A DNA stretch of 54,287 bases, the filler included, from Jimgerdemannia flammicorona (Eukaryota): the NCBI GenBank assembly GCA_003990765.1. It is 2 parts of 2 records of this genome, joined end to end, with 100 filler letters (N's around TTAATTAATTAA, not from the genome) between each part and the next. Parts side by side here need not be neighbours in the genome. Positions count along the whole stretch, not along the records: positions 1 to 27,100 come from RBNJ01000662.1; positions 27,201 to 54,287 come from RBNJ01000663.1. One strand, given 5' to 3'. Under the pieces are notes generated by a model. That model was given only the letters and a program-made list of their open reading frames with translations. It ran no database searches and had not been told where the DNA came from. Made by a program: the position numbers and the translations under genes. Shown in pieces: positions 13,712 to 54,188 of this stretch (positions within the stretch are counted from its first letter, which is position 1; each line of letters begins with the position of its first letter).

Positions 13712-15801
13712 TATAACCAGTATATAATAAGTAGTACTAGTATAAGAGGGTTGCTTTTTAGAGTAACCATTACATAGTTCTGGAAAGGTTTTCTAGATAT
13801 TCTGGATGTTCTGGAAGACTATTTTCTTATAGTCAAGATCAATTTCGTATGGAGTATGTCCTCTACACTTATTGATTTCAAGATTGGGTTGACATCTCAA
13901 TCAAAGTCCTTTCCTGGACTAGTTCTGGATGTTTAGAATTTTCCATATTTCAGGAAGTTTAAGAAACTAAGACCAGCTTAGTTGAATTGGCGTATTGCTG
14001 CAGACAATACCCAATTAGGAAATTTCGTGATAGGGTTAGGAGTGGGACCTAACAGGAAGTAGATTTACTTAAGAGTGGTTTATGGGTTATGGAATAGGTT
14101 TATTTGCTATTTATGATATTGCTATACTAGGAGTAGTTGTATAAAGAATATTGTAGGGAAGTATTCAGGAATATTCTTATGTGTTCGAGTCTGAGATTCT
14201 GAGGTCTGGGGGAGGGGGTATTTATACTAGTGAGGGACTATCTGGACTATGCTGAATATGGATGTAGCACTAAGTGCCTTGCTGAGTCGGAATGCAGTCA
14301 CATAGTACAAGTGTGATCTGACATATCAAGAGATCATCTGACTGCTGAGTCAGTTCACAGTTACATCATATAATGCTAATCTAACTATACTATGACTGCT
14401 AGGCTATTTATGGGTTTAGGCGCTGTCTGGGTAGTCTTCGATAACATCACCATTGATTGCATCATCTCTGATAAAGTAGTCGTCTAGGAATAATGGTTCA
14501 CGGATTACTTCTCCTTGTTCGCTGAGGTAGTAATACATTGGGACTTCATCTCCATCCTACAGGATAGCATCATCTGTTTTGTATGCTGGATAAGGTGTTG
14601 GTGGGCAAAGAATGGGTGTATTGTCTTCACTTTCATCAGATTCGCTGTCTATATATCTTCTATAGATTACGGCACTGTGAGTTGCAGGGTTGTAGTATAC
14701 TGGTGGCTGTGGTTCATGTCACTCGTACTCTGGTGGTAGAGTGGTTGGTTCGATCTTGAGGGTTGTCTAGAGGTACAGGTTATATTCTCCAGTCTCTTTA
14801 TTGTAGTTGAAGTAATCGGGGGTGAATGCAGGTTAGTATTTATGCCAGTAGTCGTTATCCTAATAAGTCTCGTATGCAGTTATGAACTGTTGTAAGTTCA
14901 TCGACAAGGTTGGCAGTGTGATCAGGGTTGGCAGAGATCCTTGGCTTGAGGTCATGTCGGCATCGGAGAGATCATTGTCTTCTGCTTCATCTTCATCGAA
15001 GTGGATTATATCGTAGATGTCCTTCATAGCGTATCCAACTTGGGGCATTTGCAGGATGTGATCATTGGGGTGTGGGAAGATTCTGTCTGTGGTTTCGACG
15101 TACTCGAGGTACTTGTGGTTGAGTTCTTGTATTATGTCATCGATTTGGCCATAGGATAGGGTAGCAACCATTTCGCTGGTAGTGACTCGGAGGCAGGGAA
15201 TAATTGTACTGTACTCATAGAAGAGTTCTCGATGTTTGCGAGCGATGAGCTTCTGGTGTTGAGACATCTGGGTAATGTCTGTATCATGATGGTGTTTGAC
15301 CATATCTTCCAGGAGGCAGCCGATCTGGTAGTAGCTTGAGATTTGTCTGATTCGGTGGGCCTCACTAAGCATATTTAGAGCATTCCATCAGGCTTCCACG
15401 AAGTAGAGGGGTGCTAGGCTGTGGATATTCATGAGGGGCAGAGGGAGTGTAGCTCGGTTGACAATGGTATTCCAAATGTCAGCACAGATGCGGTTGTAGA
15501 TCTCAGTGATCATGTTTGTATGTTTAAAAGTTATGGTTGTTATTTGTTTTGGTTCTCTGATTCAATGCATCTCGGTGCTTGATATATATGCATTTGGTCC
15601 TGATTGGTAAGATTCCATTTGTGTAAATCTTGTATTCTGTGACTTCATATTGACTCAGCTTTGTGCGCTGTGACTTCGGTTTGACTTAGCTTCATGATCA
15701 AGCAGGTGATTTCCAGATTTGTTCAGAGGTCGCGTGTAATTTTGGTGGCTTGTTCAGAGGGTGACGTGTAATTTCGGTGGCTTGGAGGTTGTGCACTTAT
15801 A
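13712..15801 (-). mobile_element. LTR-A: about 2.1-kb solo-LTR-like unit with internal ORF
   Basis: Degenerate termini tataacc..ttata (TGTAA..TTACA after transitions). Minus-strand GTATAAATACCCCC TATA at about 14219-14227, ORF upstream of it. Same layout as LTR-B and LTR-C. No clean TSD, so boundaries are approximate. Confidence 0.55.
14416..15513 (-). pseudogene. LTR-A U3-embedded ORF, 366 codons, 6 in-frame stops, no frameshift
   Basis: MITEIYNRICADIWNTI..YFVEA*WNALNMLSEAHRIRQISSYYQIGCLL..IARKHRELFYEYSTIIPCLRVTTSEMVATLS..VIEDYPDSA*. Every internal stop is one transition away from CGA/CAG/CAA/TGG. Confidence 0.75.
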
Positions 15802-16360
15802 ACTAGTAAGCTTAGTATATATATAGTCTATATATATAGTAAGCTCAATATATATATAGTAAGCTTATATTAATAAGTAGCATGTATCTGATTAAGCTTT
15901 TATTAATATATTATCAATGAGAATTAATTGCTTATATTATAGCTAGCATATATAGTAAGCTCAGTATATATATAGTAAGTATATATATATATATATATAG
16001 TAAGTATATATAGTAAGCTCAGTATATATATAATAAGCATATGTATATTAATAAGTAGTATATATCTGGTCAAGCTTACTTACATCTACTTATTAATATA
16101 AAAGCACTCTTCTCACTCTTTCCACTTTTTCATCCTTATACTTACTTATGCTTATATAATTATCACTATATCACTATATTGCACTCATGCTTGTCACTCA
16201 TACTCATGCTCATTACTTATGCTCATACTTATACTCATTGCTCATACTTATACTCATACTTATTACTCATACTCATGCTCATCACTTACTACTATAATAT
16301 ATAAGCCAAACTGTTAAAATCTACTCAATCTACTCACTCACTCACACTTACTATCTAATA
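15802..16360. repeat. Low-complexity AT-rich simple repeats ((TA)n/tagtaagc; actcat)
   Basis: Directly visible. Confidence 0.75.
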
Positions 16361-16825
16361 TATAATGGTTCTAGTTTCTTTAAAAGAAAGTAGCTAAATC
16401 TGAAAGTTCTAGTTGATCTAAAGTAGCTTAAAGAAATACTTAAAGGTTCAAGTGTTCTTGAAGGATTTCTGGAAGAAAAATATTCTGAGCTTTATTCAGA
16501 TAGAGAATAAGGATATTTATACATGATCTGAAAGAAAGATCTGAAAGAATCTTGGAAAGAAAGAGAAATACCAAGAAATAGATTCTTAGCAAAGCTGACT
16601 AATACTATTCTACAATGTTCTAAAAGGTTCCATAACTAGTTAAGATAGGATACTTAGTGTCAAGAAAAGATAAGAATGTTCTGATAGTATCTGGACATTG
16701 AGAGAAGATTTCTAATTAAGTAAAAGGTGTCAGAACATAGTAGAATATTTAAGAAATGACAAGAAAAGACTAACTAAAAGATACAAAAATATACTAAAAC
16801 TAAATATAACTGTGAAATTATTACA
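16361..16825 (-). repeat. 3' LTR of chromovirus
   Basis: Matches 23492-23956, ends ..ttaca, abuts the PPT. Confidence 0.92.
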
Positions 16826-18399
16826 TCTCTCTCTCCTTAAGAACTAATATCCTCATTGAGTTCTTAGATAATATAAGACTAGATATACTTAACCAAAATT
16901 TCTCAAACTTGTATCAGCATATTGGTGGAGATTAATCATCCTCATATAGGACAGAGGGCCTATTACTAGACTAACCAACTGAAAGGAGTTCGAACCCAGC
17001 TAGTAGCCTTATTTCAGTGGACTTCTTGTTTATTAAATATTCTACTAGTTCTAGGGTTCTAAAGTAAACTTCTAATTAAGATACTGATCATTGTCATAGG
17101 TCATCAACAATTCAAGGAAGTCACTACAGAGATTGGGTAATATGTTTTATCTTGAAGTCTTGAACTAGATCTTGAGAGTTCTTGAGGTTGACCAGTGGTT
17201 TCCAGATAATATCATATTCAAGATAACTCATCTACTTGATTAGGTATTCAAGATAATAGTAGCAGATTCATTTGTCAAGAATTTTTTCAACTTTGTACTT
17301 AATGTAGTCTTTAATAATCATTAGGGGCAGAAGGCTTAGGAATTCAACCAGGGTAGAGTGGTGATTGGTTCCAGATCTTGAGGTATGACATATGAAAGAC
17401 TGAGTGTACTCTCATGATTTCAGGTAACTTGAGGTGATAGGAGGATACAGAGACTTGTTTAGTGATCTCAAAAAGTCCAATATACTTAGGTTGAAACTTG
17501 TTCAAAGAGTGGTTAACTTGAGATTATATCTTGAGATTCTCAGTAGATAGTAGGACTTGATCTCCAATAGTGTAAGTGATATCATGGTATTTCTTGTTGG
17601 TATACTTGGCTTGATACTGTTGAGCTTTCTGAAGATTCATGGTAGCAATCTTGAGTAGTTTGTCCATTTTATCTGTAAGGTTCTTGGTAGTTGAGACTTG
17701 TATTTGACTGGTTTTCTTGAAAGAGAATAGACTTGCAGGGGTCTTGAGATCTTGACTATAAAGTAACTAGAAAGGAGAAAGACTAGTAGATGATTAGATA
17801 GTATTGTTATATATAAACTCCACATAAGTCAGATAGATGTCTCAATCATCTTATTTGTAAGAAATATAGTTTCTAAGCATTTATTCAAGAGTTCTGTTTA
17901 TACACTCAGTTTGTTCATCAGTTTGTAGATGAAAGGCAGTATATATAGTCAATTGGGTTCCCAGAGTCTTGAAGAGAGTTTTCCAGAAGTGACTAGTGAA
18001 CTTGGGGTTATGATTGCTAACAATTACTCATGGTAGACCATAGTGATAGAAGATAGACTTGAAGAAGATTCTTGCAATCTTGGGTGTGGTAGTATTAATA
18101 GTGGTTGGTTTAGCAACCATAGTTTTGGTCAGACAGTCAATGAATACAATGATGGCATCAGCATCAAATTGAGTTTGTGGTAGTTGAGTTACAAAGTCCA
18201 TGGTAACTTACTTAAACTTCTTGGTAGAAATTGGCAGTAGTTATAGTAAACTAATAGATGCTTGGTTGGTAGACTTGTTATACTGATATAGATTACAGCT
18301 GGTAATATAGTTCTTGATTTTCTTGACCATGTTTGGCCAATAGTAGTAGCATTGGATGTTCTTGACAGTCTTCTCAATTTTCAGGTGACCAGTAAGAGA

Positions 18400-19440
18400 T
18401 GATGATGGCTTTCACTGCTCCCATATATCTAAGCTATCAGGAGGGTGAGCATCTCAAGTTTTGGAGACTACAAGTATAGGCTCTAAGGAGTACTGACAGG
18501 TGTACCTTGTCCCTTAGATATAGAGGTCCCACCTGGTCTTTTTAGTATGATCATAGCTTCTAGTTTCAGCAAGTTACAAAGATTTTAAGAATTTTAGGCA
18601 AGATGGCAAAATGGCAAGACAGCAAGACAGTAAGATGGGCAAGATGACAAGATGGACAAGAGGGGCAAGAGGGGTAAGATGGACAAGATGGATAAGATGG
18701 GCAAGATGACAAGACAGGTGACAGGGGCAAGATGGGTAGATAACAAGATAGGTGATATTGGCAAGATGAACAAAATAGATAATACAGATAATATAGACAA
18801 CATAGACAATACAGACAATACAGGTAATATAGGCAATATGGACAACACAGGCAATATGGGTGGGCAAGATGGGCAAGACAAGCAAGATGGACAAGATGGG
18901 TAAGACAGTAAGATGGCAAGATGGATGACATAGGCAAGATGGGTAGACAGCAAAATAAGCAATATAGGCAAAATAGGCAAAATAGGTAATATGGGCAATA
19001 TAGGCAACATGGGCAACATGGGCAACATGGGCAATATAGGCAGATAAGATAGGCAAGATGAGCAAGATGGGCAAGATAGGTAAGATAGGTAAGACAACAA
19101 GACAACAAGATGGGTAATATAGGCAAGATAGGTAAGACAGGTAAGATAGGTAAGATAGATAAGATAGGCAAGATAGGTAAGACAGTAAGACAGCAAGATG
19201 GACAAGATAGGCAAGACAGTAAGACAGCAAGATGGGTAAGATGGGCAAGATGAATAACATGAGCAGGCAAGACAGACAAGATGAACAAGACAGACAAGAT
19301 GGCAAGATAGATGATATGGACAAGATGGGCAGATGGTAAGATAAGCAATATGAGCAAGATAGATAAAATAAATAAAATAGGTAATATAGGCAATATAGGC
19401 AATATGGGCAACATGGGCAAGATAGATAAGATGGCAAAAT
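18400..19440 (+). mobile_element. Retroposon-like insertion: about 190-bp unique head plus about 850-bp (GGCAAGAT/GGCAAGATG)n tail, with a 14-16 bp TSD
   Basis: Interrupts the integrase Zn-finger (..HNSPLTDH / LTGHLKIEKTVKN..). Flanks gtgaccagtaagag (18385-18398) and gtgatcagtgagag (19442-19455) differ only by transitions. Confidence 0.7.
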
Positions 19441-21214
19441 AGTGATCAGTGAGAGGAGAGTTATGGTATTCTTGCAAAACCTTATAGTATAGGTTTATGT
19501 TTTTAAGTAAATAGACTTAGTCTTGATGATAGATCAGATTGTTCTCAACAGTATATATATCCTTGAGTTTATTTGAGAAAACTCTAGTAGCAACTATGTC
19601 TTCTTTGTAAGCTTATCTGATTTGGTCTAGGAATTCTGATGCCAAGGTGACTTATATGATTGTGGCAAGATCTGGATATCTTGATAAGATATCTGGTACT
19701 ATAAGTATCTTGTCAGGCTTATAGATGATTGTCAGGTTGAAGATTTGAAGCTTGAGGTTCCACTTGGCTTATAGATATGACAAAGTAGATTGGGTGTTAA
19801 TATACTTGAGAGATTGATGATCAGTAATGACATCAAACTCAATACCTTCTAGATAGCATTGTCAGTAGTCTAATATATATATTATTGCTAGTAGTTTCTT
19901 CTCATGAGTAGCTAGCTTTTGTTCAGCTAGGGCCAGCTTGTAGGACTCAAAAGCAATAGAGTGATGTCCTTTGCCATCATCTTGTAACAGGACTGCTCCA
20001 ATAGCAAAATTTGATACATTAGTAGTGACTGTGAATTTTAGGCCTTGATCTGTATTATACAGGACTGGAGTATAAGTCAGGTGGTTCTTGAGTTCTTGAA
20101 AGGCTTATTGACAGAAAAGGTCCTAGATATAGGGTACATAGTGGTCAGAGTACAGGGCCTTCCTCATGAGGTTAGTCAGTAGCTCAGCAATATTAGAGAA
20201 GTTTCTGACAAAGTGGTAGTAATAGCCAGCTAGATCAAGGAAGGATTAGAGTTCTGTGAGATTTGATGGAATGGACTATTCTTTAATTGCTTCTATCTTA
20301 TATGGGTCTACTTGAATTCTTTATGCAGAGACAATATGGTCAAGATATTCAACTTGTTTCTTGAAGAATTCATACTTCTTGAGCTTAGTGTAAAACTTGT
20401 ATTTTTGCAGGATCTTTAGAATTATTCAAATGTATTTGAGGTGTTCTTCTTTAGTTGCACTAAAGATCAAGATGTCATCAAGATATACCAACAGAAAAAT
20501 AAATAGTTGATCCTTGAATATCTTATTCATCAAAGTCTGGAATATAGCAGGTATATTGGTGAGACCAAATACTAAGACTAGGAATTCATAGAGTCTAAAG
20601 GGGGTCATGAATACAGTCTTAGGAATATCTTCTAGCTTGATTCAGATCTGGTGATATTCTGACATAAGGTCTAACTTAGTGAAGTACTTGACATTCTTGA
20701 AAGCATCAAAGATTTGATCAATCAAGAGTAGCAGATAGTAGTTCTTGACAGTGAGTTTATTGAGTATATAATAGTCTATACACATTTGCAGGGTACCATC
20801 CTTCTTCTTGATGAATAAGACTGGTGAGCTATAAGGAGATTTGCTTGGCTGGATGACTTCTCATATAAGTAGTTCTTCTAGTTCCTTCTTGACTACTTCA
20901 ATTTTGAGTAGTGACATGTGGTACATGTGTTTCTTGGATGATACAGTTTCTGGAATTAGTTCAATTTCATGATTAACTTCTCATATAGATGGTAGACCAG
21001 GTAGCTTGTCTGAAAAGATATCCTTAAATTCTTCTAGCAGTAGCTTGATGCTTTCATTGACTGATAGTCTCTTGTCTTGTTTCTTAGAGTGGATCATTAC
21101 AACAAAGATATGCATTGTCTTCTTGAGTACTTTCTTATACTATATACATAGCTGACAGTATTACAATCTAGGTCTTACTTGTAGTCTTATCTGTCTTGAT
21201 CATAATATTGGCTC

Positions 21215-21638
21215 TAGTGCTCCCAAACGAGTTGAATCAATTCGAATCAAATCGAATTGAGGGTTAAATGAGTCGAATCGAATTGGGGATTTTTCAATTT
21301 GAATCAATTCAAATCGAATCAAAAGTCAAATCGAATTGAGGGTCTAATTCGAACCCTAATTTTCAAAATGCAATAACTCAGCATAAACTCATCTAAATCT
21401 AATGTACTTTAGCTTGTTAGAATCACATTAATATGGTGAATCTAATAAGCTAAAATATGTTAAATTTGAATGAGTTTTCGTTGAGTTATTACATTTTGAA
21501 AATTAAGGTTTGAATCGAACTTCGAATCAAATTGGACCTTTGATTTGATTCAAATTGAATTGAATTGGACCCTTGATTTGATCGAATTGAATTGAGTTTG
21601 GGCCAAATTCAATTCAATTCGATTCATTGGGAGTACTA
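21215..21638. mobile_element. hAT-type foldback MITE, 424 bp
   Basis: TIR tagtgctccca / tgggagtacta, perfect 8-bp TSD attggctc (21207-21214, 21639-21646), subterminal 5-bp tcgaa/ttgaa arrays. The whole element is an imperfect palindrome. Confidence 0.92.
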
Positions 21639-22049
21639 ATTGGCTCCATCTTAAAGTAAGGTGACTTCATTCTTATATCAATCAATGTCTGGATTGTATT
21701 TTGTAAGCCAGGGTTTTCCTAAGATCAAGTCATAATCTCCTAGTAGTACAATCTCAATGTCTACTCATTCCTAATATTTCTAGATCTTAATGGGCAGTTT
21801 TGTGGCAATTAACTCATAGAGTGTAGAGTACTATCTGTAGTGACTATACTATTGTTCTTGGATATAGACTTGGTGAGGATCTTGAGGCTTTTAATGAGAT
21901 TCTGATTGATGAAGTTCCCTATAGCTCTGCTGTCTATGAGTACTTGAACTTCTTTTCCTTTGACTAGGTCTTTGAAAATGAGCTCAATTTTCACTAAAAC
22001 TTGCTGCTTGATCAGTGCTGCCAAAATTCTTTTGATCTTATTTAGTTTC

Positions 22050-22450
22050 AGAGAGTTCTTAGACTTCTATAATCTTGAGTTGACTGGCTTTTTCCAGGAT
22101 CATTTGTGTAACTCAGTCTCCTTCTTTAACTGTATAGTCTTGATCCTTCTGGTTGACAAGTAAGACTTGAACTTGTTCTCAAAAGTCTGGATCAATGACA
22201 CCAGTACCTACATCTAAATAATATTTGATACTGAGTCCTGATCATAGTGCAATTCTAGCATAATGTCCTTTAGGGCATTGGACTACAATTCCAGTAGGCA
22301 CCAGAGTGTGGCCCTTGGCTGGAATAGTGACTTGTTTGACTGAGTATAGGTCAAGACCAATGACTCCTCCTATTTGATATTGAGGGACCTGGGCCTTTAA
22401 ATGAAGCTTCTTGATCTTGAGCTCAAGTTGACTGATGGTGGGATTGACAG
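22050..22450 (-). pseudogene. dUTPase domain of chromovirus, between Gag and protease
   Basis: LKIKKLHLKAQVPQY..GLDLYS..LVPTGIVVQCPKGHYARIAL*SGLS..VGTGVIDPDF..VQVLLVN..VKEGD*VTQMILEK gives dUTPase motifs 1-4. Confidence 0.85.
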
Positions 22451-23491
22451 ATATGTCCTTGGATAGCACAGTGACTGGTCTTGAGGTTCACTAGTCTTCT
22501 TAGAACATTTGGTTACAATGTGTCCTGTTTAATGACAGAAGAAATAGGCTCCAGATTTCTTCAGATACATAGTTCTTTTCTTCAGAGGTGAGCTTGGTAT
22601 TCTTTTTGTTCATAGTGTCTAAGTCTATTAGTACCAGACCAACTGTCCTTGGTTGGTTTCTGTAGCAGTTCTTGATGTGGTTCTTCTTATAGTATTCTAG
22701 CTCAAAGCAGTTGCCAAAGGTAATAATATCAAATCTATCAGTAATTCTCATAGATTCATCAAGAGTTTTGGGCTCTTCTAGCTCAATATTGACCCATGTA
22801 TTTCCCTTCAGACCTCAGATATAGTGGTCTATCTTTTCATCCTCAGATACTACTGGTAGCTCAAGTAGAATTGACAAGAATTATATATTATAGCTTTATA
22901 TAGACTTAAGTTGCTTGATGTTCACTAGCTTGTCTCTGGCTAGCTTAGTAGCATTAGTAGGCTTGAACTACTTGTGAAGGGCTCTCTTGAAAGCTTCCCA
23001 ATCTCTGATTTGTATATATGAGTATACAGATATAATCATGATATAATTTATCACCAGATGGCTATATTTCCTTAGAGGAGTATGGTGGCAAATTGGACTT
23101 GCATGTTATCTTTCATTCTTATGAGCTCAAAGTATTGATCCAACTGGAAGGTCTATGTATCTGTAGATAGTCCTCCTCAATAGCTGTTGAAGATATCTAG
23201 CTTGAGTGACTTGAAACTGATTGATACTATGGCAGAATGTGATATTTCTATAGTTTGTATTTTCTGGTGTTCTAGTTGTGCTTGAAGTTCTTAAATTTGA
23301 TAGACCATAGCATTGATTATATCTTCTATATTGAGCTGTTATCCTCCTGCTTCTTCTGTAGCAGAAGGGTCTGGCTGATAGACTGACTCTTTGTAACTTA
23401 TTTCAGGTTCATGTGACTAGTTGTGACTGGTTTCTAAATTCATATAAGGTTTCTTAATAAGGTAAGATATAATGATACTACTACTACTAAG

Positions 23492-23956
23492 TGTAACAGT
23501 TTTAGTTTCTTTAAGAGGAAGTGGCTAAATCTGGAAGTTCTGATTAGCCTAAAGTAGCTTGAAGAAATACTTAAAGGTTCAAGTATTCTTGAAGGATTTC
23601 TGGAAGAAAAATATTTTAAGCTTTATTCAAGTAGAGAACAAGAATATTTATATATGATCTAAAAGAAAGATCTGGAAGGATCTTAGAAAGAAAGAGAAAT
23701 ACCAAGAAATAGATTTTCAGCAAAGCTGACTAATACTATTCTACAATGTTCTGAAAGGTTTCATAACTAGCTAAGATAGAATACTTGGTGCCAAGAAAAG
23801 ACAAGAATGTTCTGATAATGTCTGGGTGCCAAGAGAAGGTTTCTAACCAAGTAAAAGATTTCGGAATATAGTAGAATGTTCAAGAAATAACAAGAAAAGA
23901 CTAACTAAAAGATGTAAAAATATACTAAGACTAAATATGACTGTGAAATTATTATT
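23492..23956 (-). repeat. 5' LTR of chromovirus
   Basis: Begins tgtaac on the + strand and matches 16361-16825. Confidence 0.92.

Positions 23957-27007: not shown

Positions 27008-27008
<1 letters not shown>

Positions 27009-27100
<92 letters not shown>
27009..27100 (-). repeat. Poly(T) run, probable poly(A) tail of a minus-strand LINE, running into the gap
   Basis: About 92 T interrupting the Gypsy integrase. The LINEs beyond the gap have the matching orientation. Confidence 0.6.
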
Positions 27101-27200
27101 NNNNNNNNNNNNNNNNNNNNNNNNNNNNNNNNNNNNNNNNNNNNTTAATTAATTAANNNNNNNNNNNNNNNNNNNNNNNNNNNNNNNNNNNNNNNNNNNN
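27101..27200. other. Assembly gap with artificial TTAATTAATTAA six-frame-stop spacer
   Basis: N-run / ttaattaattaa / N-run totalling 100 nt. Confidence 0.95.
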
Positions 27201-29225: not shown

Positions 29226-32200
29226 ATATTCAACTATCTCCCTAAGCATCTCAACATCTGCTACCAAGCTAAGTCCAACTACCATATCATCAGCAAAGGC
29301 CCCCACCTTCCACACCACACTATATACAGCAAGCCATACCACCTTCTGTTGTATCCTATCCATCAAAGGTTCCAATGAAAGAACATAGAGGATAGGAGAC
29401 AGTGGATCTCCCTGAGGAACTCCTCTTCCCAAGGAGAATACCAGACTCTAGTGACCATTACACACTAGTACTACCCACTGCTCTCTAACAGATTTAACAT
29501 AGAAACTCAAAATTATAAGGGAACACCAATGCTATCCAGTACCTTGTCCAGCCACACCCTCCAAACATGGTCATAGGCCTTCTCCTGGTCCAGAAAAACC
29601 AATCTTTCATCCAATCCACAAGCCCATGCCCCCTCAATAATGCTATGAACCCAGGCTGTCCCATCTCTGATGAGCCAACCTCTAACAATGCCCTGCTGCT
29701 CATCACCCAGCATCTGTTGGGCAACCTTCTATAGCCTTGCAACAATCACCTTGGTCACTATCTTCCTGTCCATATCCAGAAGTATGATCAGTCTCCAGTT
29801 CTTTCAGTTCCCTCTCCTCTCCTTATCTTTGTACAACAAGATCACTAACCCCAAGTCCTGTTCCCCAACCCACTCCCCATTCAAAGAACATAGTCACAGA
29901 GGGCTGCTATTTCTCCTAGAACTCCAGGAACCTTCGCCCTCTTCTTTCTAAAGTTCCAAGGTAGCCCATCCTCTCCTGGTGCCATCCCAAGCTTAGTTGC
30001 TACAATGACTCTCTAAATCTCCTCCTCTTGGACTGAAAGGATCAAGTCACCAAGGCCCTCCACTCAGAGTGGTTTCCAATTCTCCAGCATATTTCCAATT
30101 GCCTCCTCATCTGCACCCCCTTCTTCCTCACACTACAGACCCCTCCACCTCTCCTTCAGTATCCCCAAGATCTGTTGCATGCCATGCACCATCTCCCCCT
30201 CTGTATCCAGAACCCCATCTCATTGATGCCACACCCTCCTGGCCTGGAGGAGCCATGACAAGTACTTTGTAGACCTCTCCTTCTCCTCAAGACCCTACTA
30301 TCTCAGCCTAGCTACCATTCCTTTCACATGCATCTCCTCCTCCTCTCTCAACACCTGTTGCAGCTCCATCACCTCCAATTTTGCTCATACCAACCTCCAA
30401 TTATCTACCTTGCCAGAATTTAACAAATCTGCCCATCATCTGCAATCTAACCAACTGATTGGAAGCTCTTCCTTCTCTACTTCCCTGTCTCCCTGCCAGC
30501 CCCTCCTCAGTAAATCAGTGCAGTCTCTTTCAACTTTAACCATCAGATACCCACTGGCAAACTCTCATGTATCCAGCCAGCAATCTTCACTTGGATGTCC
30601 TCCATCCATAGATCCTACAAAACCTTCTCAGCCAGCAGAGAGGAGTTAAGGTACCAATGTCTGAGTCCATCTCCACTCCCCCCAAACTGCCCCTGCCCCA
30701 AGAGATCCCAATGGTCAGACTACAGGCACCACTCAATATCCAGAGACTTCCAAACATCCATTCCCCAGCATTCAGCTGTCAGGATCCAGTCAATTCTTGT
30801 ACCCAGTCTATTCACTCAGTATGTGTAAATCCTTCTGTCTCTCCACCCTGTCCTCCTCATATCCCCCAGTGAACTAAGATTCTCCACCTCCTCTCACATG
30901 TCCAAGCCACCACTCCTACCACCAGCACTCCTTCCTCCATCAGTTCTATCCATCTGAATATCCCACACCATATTAAAGTCTCTACTCAGAATATTGACCC
31001 CCTACTCCAGTAGAGAGACCTCTTCCAAAAGACCCTTAATCCAAGCAATCCACTACCCTCTAACTGCTGGGCAGTAGCAAGATCCAACCTTCACTGGTAC
31101 CCATCCAGGTCTATGTCACTCTCTCCATACCAAATGATCTCCCCAGCTTCTTATTCCACCTAAGTCTCCTTTACCACCTCACACTAAAATTACCACTTTG
31201 CCAATCTAAGCTGCAGATCCTCTCCATTCTCTGGTCCATGTCTCCTGATTCACATCATTCTCACATTGGACATCCTGTAGTAGAAAGAGATCAGCCTCCA
31301 ATCTCTTAAGCTAATTAAAAATATTCTTATGCTATCCAGAATCCTGTAGACTATTCACATTCAGAGAAAACATGTTGGTTATACTGTTCATTAAGAATAA
31401 TATTTAGAAGTTCTGCTCATCCTCTATAAGTTCATATTCATCTCTTCCCTTGCCAAGTCCAGAATGTATTTGTTATCTACTTCCTTCTCTGCAGCCATCT
31501 TTGCCTCCAATCTCATCAGAAGTTCAGCCATCTCTCCATCCTCCTTTTCCTCAAACTCCTCCCATACTCCAGGCATACCTTCTGCCAAAGCTACAACCCA
31601 TAATGCTCTTTCCAACAGTATGCAGCCCTCTCATCAACCACAATTGCTAGCTCAGCCTCTCTTTCCTTATCAATCTCATACCCCTCCTCCTCTAGGAAAA
31701 TTGCAAGCACCTCAGTCTTCAGCACCTCCACTACACCATCACCATACAAAATCCTCACCCAGTGCTCCTCACTCATCACTCTCAAGTTCACCTCCCCCAA
31801 CTCTTCCACTGCCAAGTTGTTCATCATCTTGCTTATCCACAGAAGATTCCCCACCTCCTTTTCACCTAGAGATACTGGCCTTCCTGCACTCAGCATTGTC
31901 ATGTCCACTCTAGCACTCACAGACTCATCCCACTCCTCCTCCATAATATCCACCAGCTCATCCTCACCAACTGCCACCAACTGACCCCCTTTCTCTATTG
32001 GAAACTCTAAAATGAACTTGCTGGGTGCCATGTATTGGTACATCCTCCACCCCCCAACCCCTCACCACAGGACCCCTCCTGATAAGAGAGGGGGGAGTAC
32101 CATCTAAGTCCTGTTCCTAGACTTCAAAGGTACCATCTACATATGGGTCACTGGGTGGTAACTTCTCAGCACTCTTCTGACCCTCATCATCATCCCCCCT

Positions 32201-33532
32201 CCCCTTCCCAGCCCAGATACTCTCCTCAGCACCCCCAGCCCCCTCCACATCACTATTATTCTTCTTTGCCCTACCCTCTATACTCACCAACAGCTCTCTC
32301 TGCCTCTTACACCCTTGTGTCCTCTCTCACTACCTCCTATCAGTGTGGATATGCTTTCTATCTACAATCTCCAAATACATTGACTCCACATACTTCTTCC
32401 ATGCCTTTGCTCTCCTCTCAACAGCTCCACTCATCTTCTCCAGAGCCTCTAAGAGATCCTCCTCCTCCTTCTCACTCCCTTTCACCCTTGCCACCTGGCA
32501 GATGAAAGCCCTCCAAAGCATCATCAATGGCCAGTCACATCTTTCCAGTGACCTCCTTCTCTGCCAGTCAAATCCTGACATCAATATCTCTAGTTCTAAT
32601 GGTGGTCCCCTCCCAAATCTGAAAACCAATATCTACCACATTGCTGTACTCTGCCATTACCTCCTCAACTCTCTTTCTCATCTCAACCACCATTACCATA
32701 GGCACCCCCTTCACTATTAACTGAACCACTCTGGGGTCCCACCTCAGACAGTACACTATAGGGACCACCACTTCCTCTACAGCCACTCCAGTCTTCAGAG
32801 CCTCTTCTAGTGGACCCACCTCCTCAAAGCCCACCTCAACCCCCTCAAGACCCTTCAGAAACTTCATTGAGGTGGCCTTAGCCACCTGCTTTGAGATAAT
32901 CCCCAAGACCATCCTTGCTGTCACTGCTAAGCCCTAGAAGTACAAGGTCATAACAAACTCTGAAATTAACTTCTTGAGTAATAGTGCCACTACTAGCCCC
33001 ATTACACCATCTGCCAGGTCCTTCTTCCCCTTTGGAAACCCCTGTTTCACCCTGCCATCAGCTGTCACATCTCTTTTTTTTCCTGATTCTCCATTACACT
33101 CCCATCAACAGTTACTCTCCCAGCTACAGAGTCTCCAGCACCTATACTTACATCTCCTGCCTGAGTACTGCTCCCCCTCCCAACACCAGTACTTGTCTTG
33201 CCCTTCCCCTCAGCTGCACCAGCCCTAGAGCCCACTGGCCATCTATACTCCTTCACTTTATCTGCAAAGCTAGGGGGGCCAGGCCTTCCCCTATTTCCAC
33301 CTGACACCAGTCCTCCTCCAGAGCTCTCTCCACTCTTCAACTGTCCAAAGGCCCCCATCCCTAGACCATAACCTCTCCCCACATGCTGTCAGCCAAATAC
33401 CCCAGGTCTACCTGACCCAGTATGCCTGTCAGAACTGTTGCTCAATGATATTTTTATAGTATCTTTTCTCCAAGTTGTGTTGAAAACCATTGCTTGAAGT
33501 TGGTATAATGTGAATTGTATAAGAGAAAAGTG
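29226..33532 (-). mobile_element. L1/Tx1-type LINE copy B: ORF1 plus APE endonuclease and RT, degenerate
   Basis: Endonuclease RIDWIL..SDH about 30710-30800. RT APGEDGLP, WRLIILL..RKIVTK, LDQEKAYDHV, GVPQGDPLSPILYVLSLEPL, AFADD at 29990-29280. 5' junction with Gypsy B at 33532/33533. Confidence 0.9.
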
Positions 33533-35721
33533 TTATTCCTCCTCATCATCACTGTCAGCTTAAAGCTCTGGGGGCTGGTCATCTTCTTTGGCTTTCCTTT
33601 TTGCTTCAGTGACTTCTTGCTCATACTTCTGTTGGCAGATTTTCCTGACTTCACTGATACAGGACCAGCAGTTATTCAGGTGTTCAGAGTGATACATCCT
33701 AGTATCATGAGGGCATCTTTCTTGAGGGGCATAGTCATCGATGATCTTATTGTACCACTGCTCATCTGTGAGCTTGGGTGTCTTGTTCTTATTCTTATTC
33801 TTGTTCACCAAGTGCATAAAGACTTCTGTGTCCTCCTCATCTCCTTCCTCCATATCTGGTAGAACTCCTTTGTAGATATTGATAGAGACTCATATCTTTC
33901 ATCCTCTATAGTTGATCTGCATCTTCTGGACATTGAGATCAATGATGGTCTTGGTCTTGTGAAGTCATTGGTTGCCAATGAGGATGTCATAGTTGGTGGT
34001 GCTTGTAACAATCATATCTACTGGGATGGTAGCTCCTTCTATCTTGATGGAGACTTCTCAGATTTTGCCAAGGGGGGTAGCTTATATATCATCTGCTGTA
34101 ACATAGACCATCTTGGTGGACTCTTCAATGTCCCAGCTTAGGCAGTCAATTGCCTTTTTGCTCATGAGGCATCCTCCAGTACTGGTATCCATGATGGCAT
34201 CAAAGATACAATCTTCGATCTGACATAGAGTATAGGCTGATGTCTTGTGCTGGTCTTCAGATTCTTCATCTGAGTCTTCTTGTGCATTGTGAGCTTTTAC
34301 AATCTTATACTCTTGATTCTTGGTAGTAGTTGCAAGTCCTACTCTCAACTGCTGTCTGAAGGCAGAGACTTTGGCTAGCTGTCCGAAAGTAGTATTGACC
34401 TTCTGTTTCTTGAGGTCCTTGTAGACATCATACTGGTGGATCTTGGTCTTGCACAGCTTCTGTTCCTTCTTGCTTTCACTTTCTCCTGAGACTAGAGTAG
34501 TGCCTTCAATGATTTGGTAGACAGCTTCATCTAACTCTATGTCTTGATCAATCTCCTCAGATTGGGTCTTGCTTTGAATAGTGATAGCTGGGGTCTTCTT
34601 TGGTCTTCCAACTGGCTTACTGTTACTCTTCTTGTCATAGGGCTTGGACTGGATTCTGGTACCTTCAGTAGCAGAGTAGAATTTGAGCTCCTCATAGTAT
34701 TCATCATCATCAGTATCACCAATCTCCTCAATGACTACTGCATTGGTTTGTTCTCTAGTTCTGCTAGCATTACTTGGTTGGGCTTTGCATCTTGTTTCAG
34801 TCATACAACTCTTTGCATAGAGGCCTTCTTCTCCACATCTGAAGTATATAATATTGTGTTCTTCTATAGCAGTTGCAAATCTCTGTACTGGTCTCCTATT
34901 GATACTTCAGACTTCTCTAACAACATTACCAAGGTATGCAGTCATCTCAGCAAACTACTTGGTGTGTTCCTCCACTAGGTCAGCTTTGGCTATCTTGGGG
35001 GTAGGTGGGGATGGTTGTCTGTTTACAACTGTGGTGAGTATGATACTAGTTGGCTTTGATGGCTCCATTTTGATGCCAGTTATTTTCTCTATTGAGTATT
35101 TAGTGGGATATCTGGCAGTCTAATATCTCTGTGCAAAGACCACTTTCTGATTAAGAGTCAGTGCAGCTGGGTAGACTGGATTGTTAGAGCACTTCCTTTG
35201 AGGAAGATTGAATTTGCTATTTGTTTCTTGAGGTAGTCATCATAGCCAGCTAAGATAATCTGGTGACAGACTTAGATATAGAATGAGTTGGGATCTTTGC
35301 TGAGTCTCTGGCAGATAGTATTGAGTTGATTCTTGAGAGCTTACTTGATATCTTCAGTATAATATGTTGTTCTGAGAAAGGCCTTTATGTTGGCAAGTTT
35401 GGCTATACCATTATTAGCAATAGTGGCTGTATTGAACTTGTCTCTGGCAGGTCCTCTGAGGCTGACAGGTAGAAGAGCCAATTGCGCATCCACACCAAGA
35501 GCTCATATGTTGGCAAATTATTCAAAGTCTTCAATGAAGGTCAGGATTGACTCTTTAGTAGTATATCTATAGAATGTGGGGGGGGTATATTTCTATCTTA
35601 TCTTGAATTCTTGCAGGGGTGACTCTTGTAGTCAGAGTAGTTGTTGTGGTGATTATTTGTTTTTCAGCTTAAAAGTGAGGGATTTGTCTTGAATCACCAG
35701 CCAATGGGCACCAAGTTGTTA

Positions 35722-37287
35722 TGTAGTAGTTACTGAGTCCTTCAAATATATCAGATTCTCTTTAAGGTATATCTCTTAGACTAACTCAAGTTTGTTATAA
35801 GTAAGTTCTTATTGGAGTGCCTTTCTAAGGTCTTATAGTCCTCAAACTTCTTATCTTTAAACTGTCTTGTTATCTCTTTAGATTGCTTATAAGGAATTGT
35901 GTATATTATACTGAGTAGACTGACTTTATTTTAGAGAAAATAAGAGGGGTCTTTATACAAAATATAATTCAATGGTTGTTAAGATATAAAGCTAAATATA
36001 AATTCTAATAACTAAAATAAAATGCCAGGATATGGAAAACTGTTAAGTTCCAGTGTTGGTACTAATGGTTGTACAGGTTCAGGATGCTGGTGTAATTTCA
36101 GTGATATAGGAAAATAGTGCTGGAATAATTCTGAGTCACATCAGAATGCTAGTGGAGGAACAGCTGTTACATAGGAAAAGAGTGCAGTATAACTAAAGGA
36201 CTTTTAGGGCAGAATGTTCAGGACCATAGGAGCTTCATCCTTATCAGAGGTCAGGATATCTTTGAAGAAGATGAGGTCTGTGAATGTTTTGTCCATCTTA
36301 TTGTTATCACATAGGTCACATATTTCATGTATGTCATGTGGGATGATATTATTGCTGATAACATTATCACATTCAGTGGCAGCAGGAACAAGGAGATCTG
36401 GAGCTCTCCAGTCTATGAGGTTCTCTTCCTTGAAATAGGAGATAAATATGGAGTCTTGGGGAGGTCTAATCTGGATACTTGGGTCTTGGAATACTGAGAT
36501 CAATCCTTGCAGGAATTGGTCTGAGTTGTCCTGGATGATGGGATGCCAGAAGTCTTCTACTTCATCACTATTGAGGGTAATAGTGGACTGGGCTTCTGTG
36601 GCCACTCTGACTTTTAGTGCATTGCTACAGTAGACTGACAGGTCTCTGAAGTCTGAGACTCTAATATACTCTAAGTTGGAGATCAACTATGATGTATGTC
36701 TGAAGATCTGATAGATCTTCTTAGCTGTCCTTGTTTTACATATATCCATGAGAGTGGCATCTTGTAACTCTTGAGGGATGGTCTGTTGGAACTTCCAGCA
36801 GAGGAGGTTTTCTATTTCATACTTCTACCACATTTGGAGATATTTGGTAGCAATGGTGATCCTTGTTTCCATTTTATAGCAGTAGAGGATAAAGTGATAA
36901 GGATCTGCAGTACTCAGGTTGATACTAGGAGTCTCTCTTATGTGGGTCCTCATAGCTCTTCTGATGTCTTGGAATATTCTTTCTTTAACTGAGGGGCCTT
37001 GGTGATTCTTTGACCTTGAGGTTTGGTGAGCAGCAGACATTTCATTTTTAGTAAGTCTTTGAGCTATTTTGGGATTGGTGGGTCTTGTTGAGTTGCTGCT
37101 GCTACAGTTCCTTGATCCTTCTTTTATATTCCTCAAGATACATACCTATACTGTGGTCATAATGACTCACAGTTAGTCATAATTGCTCATCTTATATGCT
37201 ATATGATCTTCTTGTACTCTGATCTGGTGGCTTTCAAGGAAAGGCTGTCTTCTGTGCTGATGTCATTATTCTGGGGTCACTGTTACA
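35722..37287 (-). repeat. LTR-B, 5' copy
   Basis: tgtag..ttaca termini, adjacent PBS, TATA GTATAAAGACCCC at about 35946-35958 on the minus strand. Confidence 0.88.
36204..37190 (-). pseudogene. LTR-B U3-embedded ORF, about 329 codons with a few in-frame stops
   Basis: ORFs 36825-37136 and 36204-36686 are one frame joined through TAG stops: ..ERIFQDIRRAM..INLSTADPYHFILYCYKM..LQMW*KYEIENLLC..RTAKKIYQIFRHTS*LISNLEYIRVSDFRDLS.. The start codon is uncertain. Confidence 0.8.
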
Positions 37288-39110
37288 ATATATAAGCTAA
37301 ATCTCTTAGTAATTTTAGAAAGAATTTATCTAGTATTTTACATATATATCTCAACTTCAACTGTATACTCTAAACACCTTTGAAGGAAGAACTGTATCAC
37401 TCTCAGATCTAATTATTATCAATCAGTAATCAGAATAAAAAGTTAATTATATTTTAGATTATAAAGACTAATAATTTAAATAAGCTGTCAAGTCTACCTA
37501 TTACAATCTAGTAAAATAGAAAAGATATCCTAAATATAATACCATCTGGAGAAAAGAGAATAATCTGATATAAATATCTAGTATAATGAAAATTCTAATA
37601 GAATTTTCAAAGAGCAGTCATATTACTGACAAGTTAAGTATAATATAAATAGTCAACAATAATTAACAAATCAAAAGCAAGATTATAATAGCCATTCTTA
37701 TAGCTATTGAATATCAATAGACCTCTACTGAACCACCTTCTGTCAATATATAAATTTCTAAATGCTCTGATCTGAATAAAGCCCAATAATATCTTAGAAG
37801 AATTCAATACTTTTAAACCTTCTACTACTAATAGAAACTGAAAGAATACTATAAAATAAGACAGATCAATTATCAACAAGCTATACTTGATAAGGCCAAA
37901 TAGTTATTCTGTCATTTTATTGATAACTATACCTATATTATCACTAAGAGACTATATTTTCTTTTCTATATACAACTCTAAATCCTTGATCATCTCTGTA
38001 AAATATCTTCTAAAAATATTACCCATTTGACTAATGAATATTAAAGAGATATTACTTTTTAAGTAGTCCAGTATACAGTTCTTTAGTTTAATAAATATCT
38101 AGAAATTTAATATAGAATTAATGAGTAGATTCTGATAAAAAAGATAAAACTATAATATTTCATTATATAATAACAACTTAATAAAAATTCTAATAGAAAT
38201 ACTAATAAAAATTACAATAGAATCTTCTATAGAAATTCTAATATAGTTGTCATATATACTATATAGTATAACTATATATAAATATATCCAGTATACTATA
38301 TTTAGCTAGAGCTCCAAATCTGTATATTGTGGCGTTGGTTATGTATAATGAACTTCGTCTGCACGGCTCAATATGTGCCACTTGGTGAAGCGCGCGATGG
38401 ATGTGAGTGCGTTCGCGACGGTTACGGGTCGATGGTCACGTGATCGGGTCGTTCGAAACGTGTGATAATAGCGGGACTTCGATTGTTCAATGATGGTGGC
38501 TCAGGACGTCGATGGTGGCTCGATTGTTTAGTGGATAAGGGCGGCGATTATGCTGGCTAAGTTTCCTGGCGGCAAACTCGGCGACGACGGTCTTGATGGT
38601 CTTGCTCTTTATGCGGTCAATTAAAGCGGTCGACGGTCTTGACTTTAAGCGGTTCGTGGCGCAGTAGGTCGGAAATCGGAGAAGCGGAGGTTGACGGCTC
38701 GCTCGTCCGTCTTGGTTAACTTGAAAGGTTCCTGGCGGTCGTTCGAGTCTTTGGCAGTTGTTCTTGCTAGCTGGCGGGTCTTGTACTGGTATCCTTGAGT
38801 TCCTTGGCTTTTCGGGGTCTTGAATCTCGAATGGCGGCGGTCGGGTAACGTTTTCTTTCTTTCCGTGGCAAGAGAAAATTCTTTTACTCAAACTTCCGAG
38901 CGATCCATTGCTCTAGGTTGTTATCTTGTTCTCAGAATTTATCCGGTCTCTTGGAGGCAGTGTGTTTTCTCTGTAAAACTATCTGACTGAGGTTTATTCA
39001 CTCTAAGAATATGGGTTATTTATACAAGTTTGCTAGCTATGGGCGCGGCTAAGGTATACTACGTTGTGGCAAACTTTGCTATGCTATTGGCTTGCACGAT
39101 GTGAAGGGCT

Positions 39111-39510
39111 GACTTGCTGACAAGACGCTGAAAACGGTTGAGCTGGATAGCAATGCTGGATACGGTTGTGCTGGGTGGCAATGCTGAAAACGGACTTGCT
39201 GACTTGCTGACACGGACGGATATGGATGCGACGATTGTTGCCAGAAGCGGTTGTGGAGGGTAGCAATGCTGAAAACGGACTTGCTGACAAAATGCTGAAA
39301 ACGGTTGCACTGGATAGCAACGCTGGATATGGTTGTGCTGGGTGGCAACGCTGAAAACGGACTTGCTGACTTGCTGACACGGACGGATATGGATGCGATG
39401 ATTGTTGCCAGAAGCGGTTGTGGAGGGTAGCAACGCTGAAAACGGACTTGCTGACAAAATGCTGAAAATGGTGGTACTGGGTAGTAACGCTGGATTCGGA
39501 CTTGCTGACT
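39111..39510. repeat. 167-bp tandem repeat (about 2.3 copies) in LTR-C, candidate U3 enhancer
   Basis: gacttgctgacaa recurs at 39111, 39278 and 39445, built from gctgaaaacgg subrepeats. Lies between the ORF stop and the TATA box. Confidence 0.85.
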
Positions 39511-39697
39511 AAAAGCATGGTTCTCACAGCTGATAGGCGGTACTCTAGAGGGAATAGTACCATTCGTCCGCGGTGGGCAAATCTTGCTGGGTTGCGATTT
39601 CTTCTTCATCATATCTCTCCTCAAAAGGGGGAAGCGCCAGCCAAGAGGTGAGGGGGTAGAAAAGTGGCCAGTCATCTTCAACAACATTCTCCAACCC

Positions 39698-40531
39698 TTA
39701 AACAGCTTGAATGCGGACAGAGGACTGGTAGACTCTCTGTTGCTCCTCTTCTTCTTCTGAAGACTCGTCAGTTTCAGTGTCAGAGGGGGTTTCTTCAGGG
39801 GCAGGGCCTTGGAGTTCTTGGGGCTCCTCTTTAAAGACAGGGACCTCTTGGGCTTCTTCTTGATTCGGTTCCCAAATGATGAGATGTGAATTGTGGCTGA
39901 CAGGGTGGTGGGTGGTTGGGGTAGCTCCAATGGGTGCTTCTATAGTAATGGGCGGTCCTTCAAATATCTCCATAAGACTCATTAGGTGACCTTGATGGTT
40001 GTCTCGGAGTGGGGTGGTGTGGAAACCTGGCTGAGTAGGTTCAGTTTGTTGGCTTCCTACAGCGACCCGGTTGCTACCAGTAGAGTTGGCTACTTCTGAT
40101 TCTATCCAGTCTGCATCTTCAGTTGAGAGACAGGCAAGACTGCCGGCTGTTACTCCTTGCAAGTGTGCTATGGCCCAGGGAATATGGCGGAAGATTTGGT
40201 AGACACGGAGGGCTCTCTTGATTAGCTGGCTGGTGGTTAACATTTCGGCAATGAGGTCTTCTTGGTCGCCTTCTTGAGTCTTATTGCAAAGGCAGTGTCC
40301 AATTTCATAGTCATGCCAGAGGGTCATTCGTTCGGTAGTGTCTTTGAGCTGTTGGGTCATTATATACTGGTAGTTGATGAAGTGTCCAAGGTCTTCGGTG
40401 TAGAAGTTCAAGTGTTCAGAAGTATCTGGGTGCCAGATGGCCTTCTTGATAGCTTCAAAGATCAGAGTCTTTGGGCTGGGCAAAGGGGTAGAGCGGCGGG
40501 AGGTCTGGTTGGATTGGCGAATGGGAGGCAT
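39698..40531 (-). CDS. LTR-C U3-embedded ORF, intact, 277 aa from MPPIRQ (frame open from 40732)
   Basis: Uninterrupted intronless ORF: basic N-terminus, helical core LIFEAIKKAI..WHDYEIGHCLC..RALRVYQIFRHIPWAIAHLQGVT..LS, acidic tail. Homologous to the LTR-A and LTR-B ORFs. Confidence 0.8.
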   Translation of the reverse strand: MPPIRQSNQTSRRSTPLPSPKTLIFEAIKKAIWHPDTSEHLNFYTEDLGHFINYQYIMTQQLKDTTERMTLWHDYEIGHCLCNKTQEGDQEDLIAEMLTTSQLIKRALRVYQIFRHIPWAIAHLQGVTAGSLACLSTEDADWIESEVANSTGSNRVAVGSQQTEPTQPGFHTTPLRDNHQGHLMSLMEIFEGPPITIEAPIGATPTTHHPVSHNSHLIIWEPNQEEAQEVPVFKEEPQELQGPAPEETPSDTETDESSEEEEEQQRVYQSSVRIQAV

Positions 40532-41732
40532 TGTGTGGTGGGTATTTGGTTCTTTGGTGCTGATCCCTGAGGCAGAGTATGGTTCCTTAAATAACATGGT
40601 CTTTATTTTGGCTCGGATCATCTTGTCTTCTTTTGGTGAAATCCTTGATAGATTGGACTGGTCACCAGTTATCGCACCATAATGCCGTCTGATCTTGTGG
40701 TCACAGGGTACTCCAAATTTGGACAGGGTCAATTGTAGATGTCACAATATATAAATACTCTCTATACTGAATATTATAACCTCAGCTCTGCTTTTCTCTC
40801 TTATAAATAAAGAAGTATTCTTATCAAAAAAAACCCTCAGATCCAACTTGTGAATAATTCTAAGTCTCATCAGCTTAGAATATAAGTATAGTACCTCTAC
40901 TCTATATAAGAATCTGAAAGTGATACTTTGGTAATGGATACTTAGAACTTAGTATTTCCTTATAGAACTTGGAATTTAGAGCTGATACTTATCTTATTAT
41001 CTATAATATATTAATTCTATCAGTATATAGTTTTATTATGCTATTGTTCAATTTATAAATAAGTTTATTATTAATTTTATTAATTTTATTTTATTATTTC
41101 TTATCTAATTTATTACTATTTAGCTTTTAATAATATTTAGCATTTATTATTATCTATTTTATTATTACGCAGTTATTATTCAGTAGAATTTATTATTATT
41201 ATATAGAATATAATGATAATTAACTATAGAACAATTAATATATTTAGATTGAGTTTAATAAAATAATACTAAAAAATTATTTATTAATAAGAGTTCTCTA
41301 GAATAGCTTTATATATATTCAGATCTCTCCCAATATATATCAGAAATTCTCCTACAATTTATATAATAAAAATACCATCTCTGGATATATGAGTAAATTG
41401 TAAATTATGCTGGAGATATGTGTGATATTCTCTCAGAGATTCTCAGGTTTTTCTCTGGAAAATATATGTAACATATCAAGAATTTTATATCAAATTTCCC
41501 AGTATATTCTGGATGACATCTCGAAGAATGTTGGGTACTCCTGAAGCCCGGGTTATGAAAATAGTAGAGATTTTCTGGTACTTCCAGATATCATTATAGA
41601 CCACATCCCAATTTCGTGATGTATACGCCAAAGGAATATTTATATTTCACTCAGTTAGGTGACGAAAATTCTACGCTATACAAATCTCTAAAATACATGT
41701 CAATCAATAACATGTCAATCAGCTACGGGAAA

Positions 41733-54150: not shown

Positions 54151-54188
54151 CTTTCAATGTTTCTATACAATCAATGTTTAAACCTGAA

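Follow-up and report, generated by a model that had tools for sequence, protein, structure and literature searches.

An ORF-bearing pair of long terminal repeats and two LTR-like units

The window, as the whole stretch of DNA analysed here is called, comprises 54,287 nucleotides of Jimgerdemannia flammicorona (GCA_003990765.1), in which two records, RBNJ01000662.1 and RBNJ01000663.1, are joined by 100 filler letters (positions 27101-27200). From about 12.5 to 41 kb it is AT-rich and holds degraded retroelements, nested in one another and almost all on the minus strand. One of these, element B, is of the Ty3/Gypsy type and has an open reading frame (ORF) in both copies of its long terminal repeat (LTR). 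The core finding of this study, which we regard as real, is that a conserved orphan family of ORFs lies in U3, the unique 3' region, of at least one proven Gypsy-type LTR, and that homologues lie in two LTR-like units, C and A.

That LTR-B is truly a pair of LTRs, enclosing an interior of the Gypsy type, follows from the paired copies, the purine tract before the 3' copy, the TGG-containing leader after the 5' copy, and the gag and protease region between them. Both copies are on the minus strand, the 5' copy at 35722-37287 and the 3' copy at 24518-26116. In the self-comparison of the window from which repeats were defined (blastn, E 1e-10; four repeat relationships), 24518-26116 is aligned with 35719-37287 over 1644 columns, of which 75.6% are identical. 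Both begin with TG and end with CA, except that the more mutated copy ends with TA. The 3' copy opens with TGTAAT and is abutted by the purine tract AGGAGAAAGA at 26117-26126 (minus strand); the 5' copy starts with TGTAAC, ends with ...ACTACA, and continues into TAACAACT and then TGGTGCCCATTGG. In this leader, written TAACAACT-TGGTGCCC for short, TGGTGCCC stands 8 nt beyond the copy; no primer binding site was matched to a tRNA. The flanks of the element, TATAT and TAATA, were compared by eye as a target-site duplication, in AT-rich, mutated DNA.

The interior of element B (26117-35721, minus strand) consists of gag and an aspartic protease at about 33533-35718, followed by an insertion that bears a reverse transcriptase (RT) and closes with poly(A) (27010-27100), where two N gaps adjoin; the domain matches in the interior are RVT_1 and Asp_protease. 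The protease match is weak in element B itself (18.8 bits) and clear (30.6 bits) in a sibling that is 86% identical: positions 33533-35720 recur, inverted, at 51092-53253, and the sibling runs on into a protease-dUTPase region (dUTPase, 73.9 bits). The RT-bearing segment of element B terminates in a run of 91 A residues on the minus strand (27010-27100), adjoining the gaps, and we infer that it is a nested insertion of the LINE type (a non-LTR element), to which the RT probably belongs.

Both copies of LTR-B hold the same ORF. In the 5' copy it lies at 36204-37040 (ORF B5, minus strand; 278 codons plus stop, coding 37040-36207) and is interrupted by two in-frame TAG codons; in the 3' copy it lies at 25020-25865 (ORF B3, minus strand) and has eight in-frame stops. 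Unit C (38328-40746, minus strand) is a single copy in the window with TG and CA ends, the latter followed by TTGGAGC; by eye, its flanks mismatch as a target-site duplication. Its frame, ORF C (39545-40531, minus strand), has 328 codons and one in-frame TAA at 39698-39700. Unit A (13712-15801, minus strand), also a single copy, has ambiguous ends, with no tract resembling a polypurine tract (PPT) seen before it, and holds ORF A (14860-15513, minus strand), of 217 codons with one in-frame TGA. The leaders or flanks of A, of C, and of a neighbouring element with short LTRs show no similarity to those of B.

These results bear unevenly on the first-pass annotation, which had proposed three giant LTR families, each with a TG start and a CA end and each with a single long frame. 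The proposal stands for B, whose pair is proven; A and C, single copies recognized by their layout, are better termed LTR-like. The terminal dinucleotides were recovered in B, with the exception mentioned, and in C. The annotation was right that A, B, and C are dissimilar in DNA, as blastn at E 1e-10 detects no mutual similarity, and that one frame stands out in each unit. The sense frame has 1 stop in A against 6-17 in the other five frames, 2 in B5 against 11-29, 1 in C against 7-20, and 8 in B3 against 16-33.

With one to eight in-frame stops each, all copies in the window are dead. In ORFs A, B5, and C the stop sites correspond to sense codons in intact relatives, each change being a single transition, and at the TAA of ORF C the relative P0001 reads through with a sense codon. 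This stop is private to the window copy: at position 39700, every covering contig from four public sequencing runs differs from the letter in the window. Transitions between B5 and B3 number 254 and transversions 63, and B3 is shifted toward T and A; the copies look like formerly intact genes that decayed through a C-to-T process. The four runs come from three studies (two are labelled soil metagenome, two are coded organisms); they yield 1837, 227, 91, and 168 contig pieces on LTR-B and unit C, at 85-99% likeness. They hardly cover the spacer at 37370-38254 and cover little of the U5 of unit C, which by the rule of the mapping does not count as evidence.

An orphan protein family

The proteins of B and C are clearly homologous, even though their DNA cannot be aligned. 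Their Smith-Waterman score is 195, against 34.0 +/- 5.1 for shuffled sequences (z 31.8; none of 300 shuffles reaches the score), and tblastn against the window returns 29.6% identity over 196 aa at E 2e-17. B5, B3, and C all match a common family profile over a helical N-terminal domain, which is marked by the motifs WxEYEIGH and A(K/L)(K/R)xxQ(I/V)FRHxP.

Relatives outside the window are few. A word-indexed protein search returned three for C, at 74-78% identity, and one for A (P0004, 88%); the closest relative used here for C, P0001, is 80% identical to it in a MAFFT alignment and 78% by BLASTP. When 1.84 billion representatives were searched exhaustively with a profile, 10 proteins came out at E <= 1e-3, seven of them reaching 1e-10 and four 1e-30. 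All 10 come from metagenomes, where their contigs measure 0.6-19 kb and their clusters have 1-6 members, and are either unnamed or called 'hypothetical protein', the label which the earlier annotation had foreseen for such ORFs. Several members are intact, namely P0001 (325 aa), P0005 (247 aa, of the B type), P0006 (342 aa), and an ORF of 291 aa on the contig L001. Relatives from other subfamilies have 22-31% identity to P0001, and the nearly invariant columns are confined to the N-terminal domain; that frames remain intact at this distance argues for past constraint on the protein.

L001, of 1535 bp, was the one contig found when metagenome contigs were searched with P0006. Its intact ORF is flanked, at 172-205 and 1471-1504, by a motif of about 30 nt that starts with GTCAGGCGGAAC; the two occurrences, seen by eye, are 1.3 kb apart and could be enhancer-like repeats or the mark of a tandem or circular template. 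A search with profile A2 found no relative in metagenome contigs and nothing in viral contigs, and longer, fused forms of the family protein were not found, which is weak evidence. A look-up in the Atlas gave hypothetical clusters of Mucoromycota, all below 0.9 and of value as leads only.

The place of ORF A in this family is less direct. Pairwise, its score is reached by 19 of 300 shuffles against C, by 62 against B5, by 66 against B3, and by 242 against P0001; on its own it scores 8-11 bits with the family profile. Among the 1021 ORFs of the window it is nevertheless the best match outside B and C (E 0.075; next 1.5), and its intact relative P0004, scored with a profile of 12 B and C family sequences, reaches 28.9 bits over profile positions 22-142, against 9.5 for the best of 5000 shuffles and 0.1 for the reversed sequence. 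When the pair of A-type proteins is compared with the family by hhalign, E is 2.9e-4 over 104 columns, at a probability of just 40%. The blocks that align coincide with those which the first-pass annotation had paired by eye. The A type is thus probably a distant member, linked to the others through P0004 only. Of the homology that the first-pass annotation had drawn by eye between all three ORFs, and of its claim that the protein is conserved across diverged LTR types, the part concerning B and C is firm, and the part concerning A is probable.

Full-length members combine a helical N-terminal domain of about 130 residues with an acidic, disordered tail of 115-185 residues. An AlphaFold2 model of the C family, built from 11 sequences, has a mean pLDDT (predicted local distance difference test) of 56.7; it is helical from about 20 to 153 and disordered elsewhere, with pLDDT blocks mostly of 80-90 at residues 61-150, such that only the stretch of about 20-153 is usable. 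The model of the A family (pLDDT 49.7) is helical throughout, at low confidence, and is not used as evidence. In the intact full-length members the tail has a net charge of -20 to -30, in line with the acidic, disordered-looking tails noted previously, and it contains the conserved short hydrophobic-acidic motifs FWNPILQDN, FEGPPI, and, at its end, DEAPxVLNFL. The helical, DNA-binding core proposed at the same time fared differently, since the N-terminal domain is near neutral (-3 to +3) and has no fold or family match. A known domain, which would have given the ORFs another identity, was looked for in several ways: no Pfam family matches the window ORFs at E <= 0.01, and none is better than E 0.016 in 11 members; among PDB sequences no match is better than E 0.58; and the fold searches, with Foldseek against PDB and BFVD at E >= 0.047 and with VIA at a best Z of 3.7, gave no usable match.

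Promoter layout and neighbouring elements

Downstream of the ORF, every unit has a box of the form GTATAAA(T/G)A, as the first-pass annotation had stated. In the 5' copy of LTR-B it is GTATAAAGA (35950-35958, minus strand), with AATAAAGTCAG about 20 nt downstream; in unit C it is GTATAAATA (39017-39025, minus strand), followed by AATAAACCTCAG; and in unit A it is again GTATAAATA (14219-14227, minus strand), where no AATAAA follows. One module is thus common to B, C, and the short LTRs that lack an ORF, namely GTATAAA(T/G)A, about 20 nt, and AATAAA(G/C)(C/T)TCAG, of which A has the TATA box only. Where R (the repeated region) is very short, LTRs classically have their AATAAA behind the TATA box and ahead of the expected start site, as in retroviruses. 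In the 5' copy of LTR-B, reading in the sense direction, the ORF occupies 37040-36207, the module 35958-35920, and the LTR ends at 35722; the ORF is therefore wholly inside the proven LTR and before the module, as the annotation had it. With its poly(A) hexamer in this position, the module points to a short R, and the ORF would lie in U3, upstream of the LTR promoter, with the border between U3 and R placed by the module.

A further box, TATAAA, stands at 37123-37128 (minus strand), 88 nt upstream of the start codon of B5, and is the proposed promoter of the ORF. Within the 215-375 nt before the start codon, a single TATA-like site is found at -75 in A, -88 in B5, -75 in C (as a degenerate ATAAAG), and -80 in L001; B3 has one at -83 and two others. 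We hypothesize that this site serves as a second promoter dedicated to the ORF.

Tandem repeats separate the ORF from the main TATA box in unit C (39111-39499, minus strand; 167 bp x 2.3) and in B3 (24873-24993; 33 bp x 3.6). The short repeats which had been described at this place for all units are thus present in these two, whereas the sole tandem repeat of unit A lies upstream of its ORF. A stretch of about 55 nt (38987-39040) that surrounds the main TATA box in unit C is matched by numerous contigs which diverge to either side of it, and loose contig ends fall at 38986-38987 and 39031-39041 in the runs X1, X2, and X3, which suggests a core promoter of about 55 nt common to many LTR types.

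The element with short LTRs, also of the Gypsy type, lies beside unit A at 16368-23954 (minus strand). It is 7.6 kb long, with LTRs of 456 bp (16368-16823 and 23499-23954) that are 88% identical, have no ORF, and contain the same module of TATA box and AATAAA. Its matches are RVT_1, RT_RNaseH_2, dUTPase, and a weak protease (E 0.024). Unit A was considered as an LTR of this element and ruled out, since the element has its own 456-bp LTRs. Its dUTPase domain, at 22245-22487 (minus strand) in the polyprotein, scores 33 bits. Downstream of the RNase H region, at 18595-19442 (minus strand), a 9-bp unit (TAGGCAAGA on the plus strand) is repeated about 97 times, which holds three overlapping frames open over 283-316 codons; the array could represent an expanded microsatellite or, alternatively, tripeptide repeats that extend pol.

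The second copy of the element B interior, at 51092-54287 (plus strand), has gag, protease, dUTPase, and the start of RT, and is far less mutated than B. It starts exactly at the leader AACAACTTGG, and the DNA upstream is unrelated and G+C-normal, with no TATA module within 3 kb; its dUTPase domain, in 53254-53949 (plus strand) of the polyprotein, scores 74-78 bits. In run X5, likewise, some contigs that match the B leader pass into other sequence at its border with the LTR. Taken together with the unrelated DNA upstream of 51092, these contigs indicate that one type of interior meets different types of LTR, or none.

The nested segment of element B (27010-33532) has an RT match, is strongly C-rich on the plus strand, and contains a homopolymer run of 91 nt; it also has an internal duplication of 1.45 kb (27350-28802 and 31655-33107, 74% identity). 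The two gaps beside it are of 44 N each (27101-27144 and 27157-27200). At both of its ends, the window consists of DNA with about 50% G+C and genes of host type: a Paf1 gene (5089-6587), a MaoC-like gene (9950-10534), and two BTB-SPRY genes (41733-43220 and 46273-47760). The latter are intact, with 495 codons each, and lie beside the nest of retroelements in a tandem duplication (41611-43340 and 46129-47875, 91% identity); a BTB-SPRY query matches clusters from several phyla.

Interpretation and comparison with known systems

The explanation which we favour, with a confidence somewhat above even, is that a previously undescribed orphan protein family is carried in U3 of the long LTRs of Ty3/Gypsy-type elements. 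Unusually long LTRs (1.6-2.4 kb) of such elements would carry the protein in U3; A and C would belong to related families, as solo LTRs or as the 5' LTRs of elements that have been truncated; and all would descend from a single ORF-bearing ancestor, the non-coding parts of the LTR having diverged past alignment while the protein was under constraint. Each LTR would form a self-contained cassette, in which the box 75-88 nt upstream of the start codon drives a short mRNA that ends at the poly(A) signal of the same LTR, and 5', 3', and solo LTRs could all express the protein. This would be a regulatory accessory factor for its element. That it is an activator or adaptor, acting through its acidic tail on the promoter and repeats of the LTR that encodes it, is a tentative proposal by analogy, more probably wrong than right. 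A wider reading seems rather unlikely as it stands: the long LTRs of a soil-fungal Gypsy clade would be autonomous genes, composed of promoter, ORF, enhancer repeats, and a second promoter with poly(A) signal, and the protein would be an element-specific regulator in trans, either a transactivator or a suppressor of silencing. If it were true, every solo LTR would be a potential source of the regulator, and a 'complex' regulatory layer of the retroviral kind would exist outside retroviruses.

A number of observations weigh against the explanation we favour or against parts of it. Among the ORF-bearing units only B is a proven LTR pair; no second copy of A or C was found in the self-comparison of the window, and the flanks of both are unrelated to any known Gypsy interior. 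ORF A of the window is not significantly similar to B or C and ranks 100 of 1001 against a profile of six sequences, to which the low hhalign probability of the A pair may be added. The family is tiny, its outside members are all on short metagenome contigs without known context, and no second DNA sequence of any subfamily is available for a comparison of codons. Two related elements lack the gene, namely the short-LTR element at 16368-23954, with no ORF in its LTRs, and the sibling interior at 51092, with no ORF-bearing LTR upstream. The upstream TATA motif was chosen after inspection of the sequences and is degenerate in C; the near-neutral charge of the N-terminal domain gives no indication of DNA binding; and there is no evidence of transcription or translation, none of 10 public runs, each with a small share of the stretch, being on record as RNA and one of them, X3, being RNA by guess only.

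Some of these observations would suit a passenger gene, that is, a host or foreign cassette with its own promoter which was captured once into U3 and is neutral cargo with no role in the element. The TATA-like box of the ORF, the existence of related elements without it, and the lack of any detectable element-related domain speak for it; yet the frame is intact in lineages that have 22-31% identity to P0001 and in which the LTR DNA around it has diverged past alignment, no named or domain-bearing stand-alone host homologue was found among the 10 representatives, all unnamed, and the failure to find a longer fused form points, weakly, in the same direction. We consider a passenger improbable, and take a similar view of the possibility that A and C are not LTRs at all, being dispersed stand-alone copies of the gene or another kind of repeat, with only the B lineage having taken the gene into its LTR. 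The order of parts in A and C is that of proven LTRs (TG start, ORF, GTATAAATA box, and in C also AATAAA...TCAG), and C has a CA end followed by TTGG; against this stand their single occurrence in the window, the missing PPT-like tract before A, the mismatched target-site duplication of C, and flanks unrelated to Gypsy interiors, although loss of similarity is to be expected in flanks so AT-rich and heavily mutated.

The position of the ORF within the LTR could also be read differently. If the upstream box were the promoter of the element and the downstream module its 3'-end signal, the ORF would lie in R, not in U3, as the first cistron of the genomic RNA; the TATA-like box that every unit has 75-88 nt ahead of its start codon and the AATAAA within the module are compatible with this. 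R would then span 1.1-1.7 kb, to our knowledge far beyond known R regions, and the short LTRs without an ORF have the same module about 310 nt into their 460 nt, with no need of a second promoter; an AATAAA between TATA box and expected start site is, moreover, the classical short-R layout. This arrangement is decidedly improbable. That the frames are chance ORFs in repeats, encoding nothing, is very unlikely and can nearly be set aside: there are stops in all window copies and no evidence of expression, but protein similarity at z 31.8 in the absence of DNA similarity, the strong asymmetry of stop counts between frames, and intact relatives of 247-342 aa speak to the contrary.

The usual view of LTR retrotransposons other than retroviruses is that of gag-pol machines whose LTRs are non-coding. 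If Gypsy-type elements have a conserved protein gene in U3, complex regulation based on accessory genes would have evolved independently outside retroviruses. The formation of solo LTRs would scatter a coding gene across the genome, and annotation of LTR ORFs as 'hypothetical protein' can inflate counts of host genes. Repeats, two TATA boxes, and one ORF within 1.6-2.4 kb would, in addition, make a compact model in which to study the control of a retroelement over its own promoter.

Full-text searches of the open-access literature brought up no case in which an LTR retrotransposon, fungal or otherwise non-retroviral, has a protein gene within its LTR. Extra proteins that are restricted to a lineage, evolve fast, have an unknown or regulatory role, and often go with long LTRs are described for the additional ORFs (aORFs) of plant elements, the ORF0 of Retrosat2/RIRE, and the CERV of Cer1. 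The plant aORFs and the Retrosat2 ORF0 differ from the ORF of LTR-B in being located in the internal region, not in the LTR; Retrosat2 has LTRs above 3.2 kb, with ORF0 between the 5' LTR and gag, and a review of plant aORFs, searched by term, makes no mention of an ORF inside an LTR. Another likeness is offered by crapaud of Podospora, whose LTRs of 339-443 bp vary mostly in the part of U3 that precedes the TATA box, giving one interior with differing types of U3 or LTR. The gag leader at 35720 behaves comparably in recurring at 51092 with unrelated DNA upstream, and in the X5 contigs that leave it for other sequence. The LTRs of crapaud, in contrast, are not reported to encode protein.

Among retroviruses, tas and bet of foamy viruses and nef of lentiviruses are 3'-terminal accessory genes that reach into U3; they only overlap it, whereas the ORF of LTR-B is entirely inside the LTR. 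Foamy virus Tas, an activator whose activation domain is acidic and which has a second promoter for its expression, is our preferred functional analogy, from which the present protein differs in having no fold or sequence match to it and no DNA-binding signature. The closest parallel in layout is the sag gene of mouse mammary tumour virus (MMTV), to which phrases such as 'LTR ORF' almost always refer in the open-access literature searched. Like the gene in LTR-B, sag is a sense ORF of about 300 codons inside U3, with a copy of the gene in every LTR. It differs in that no sequence or domain similarity to the ORF of LTR-B is found in Pfam scans, in that the present element is a non-retroviral one of the Gypsy type in a host that is probably fungal, and in that the ORF of LTR-B comes after a TATA-like box located in the LTR itself. 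Accessory genes situated within an LTR are thus a known kind, exemplified by MMTV sag, while the protein family that takes this place in LTR-B is new and without known relatives.

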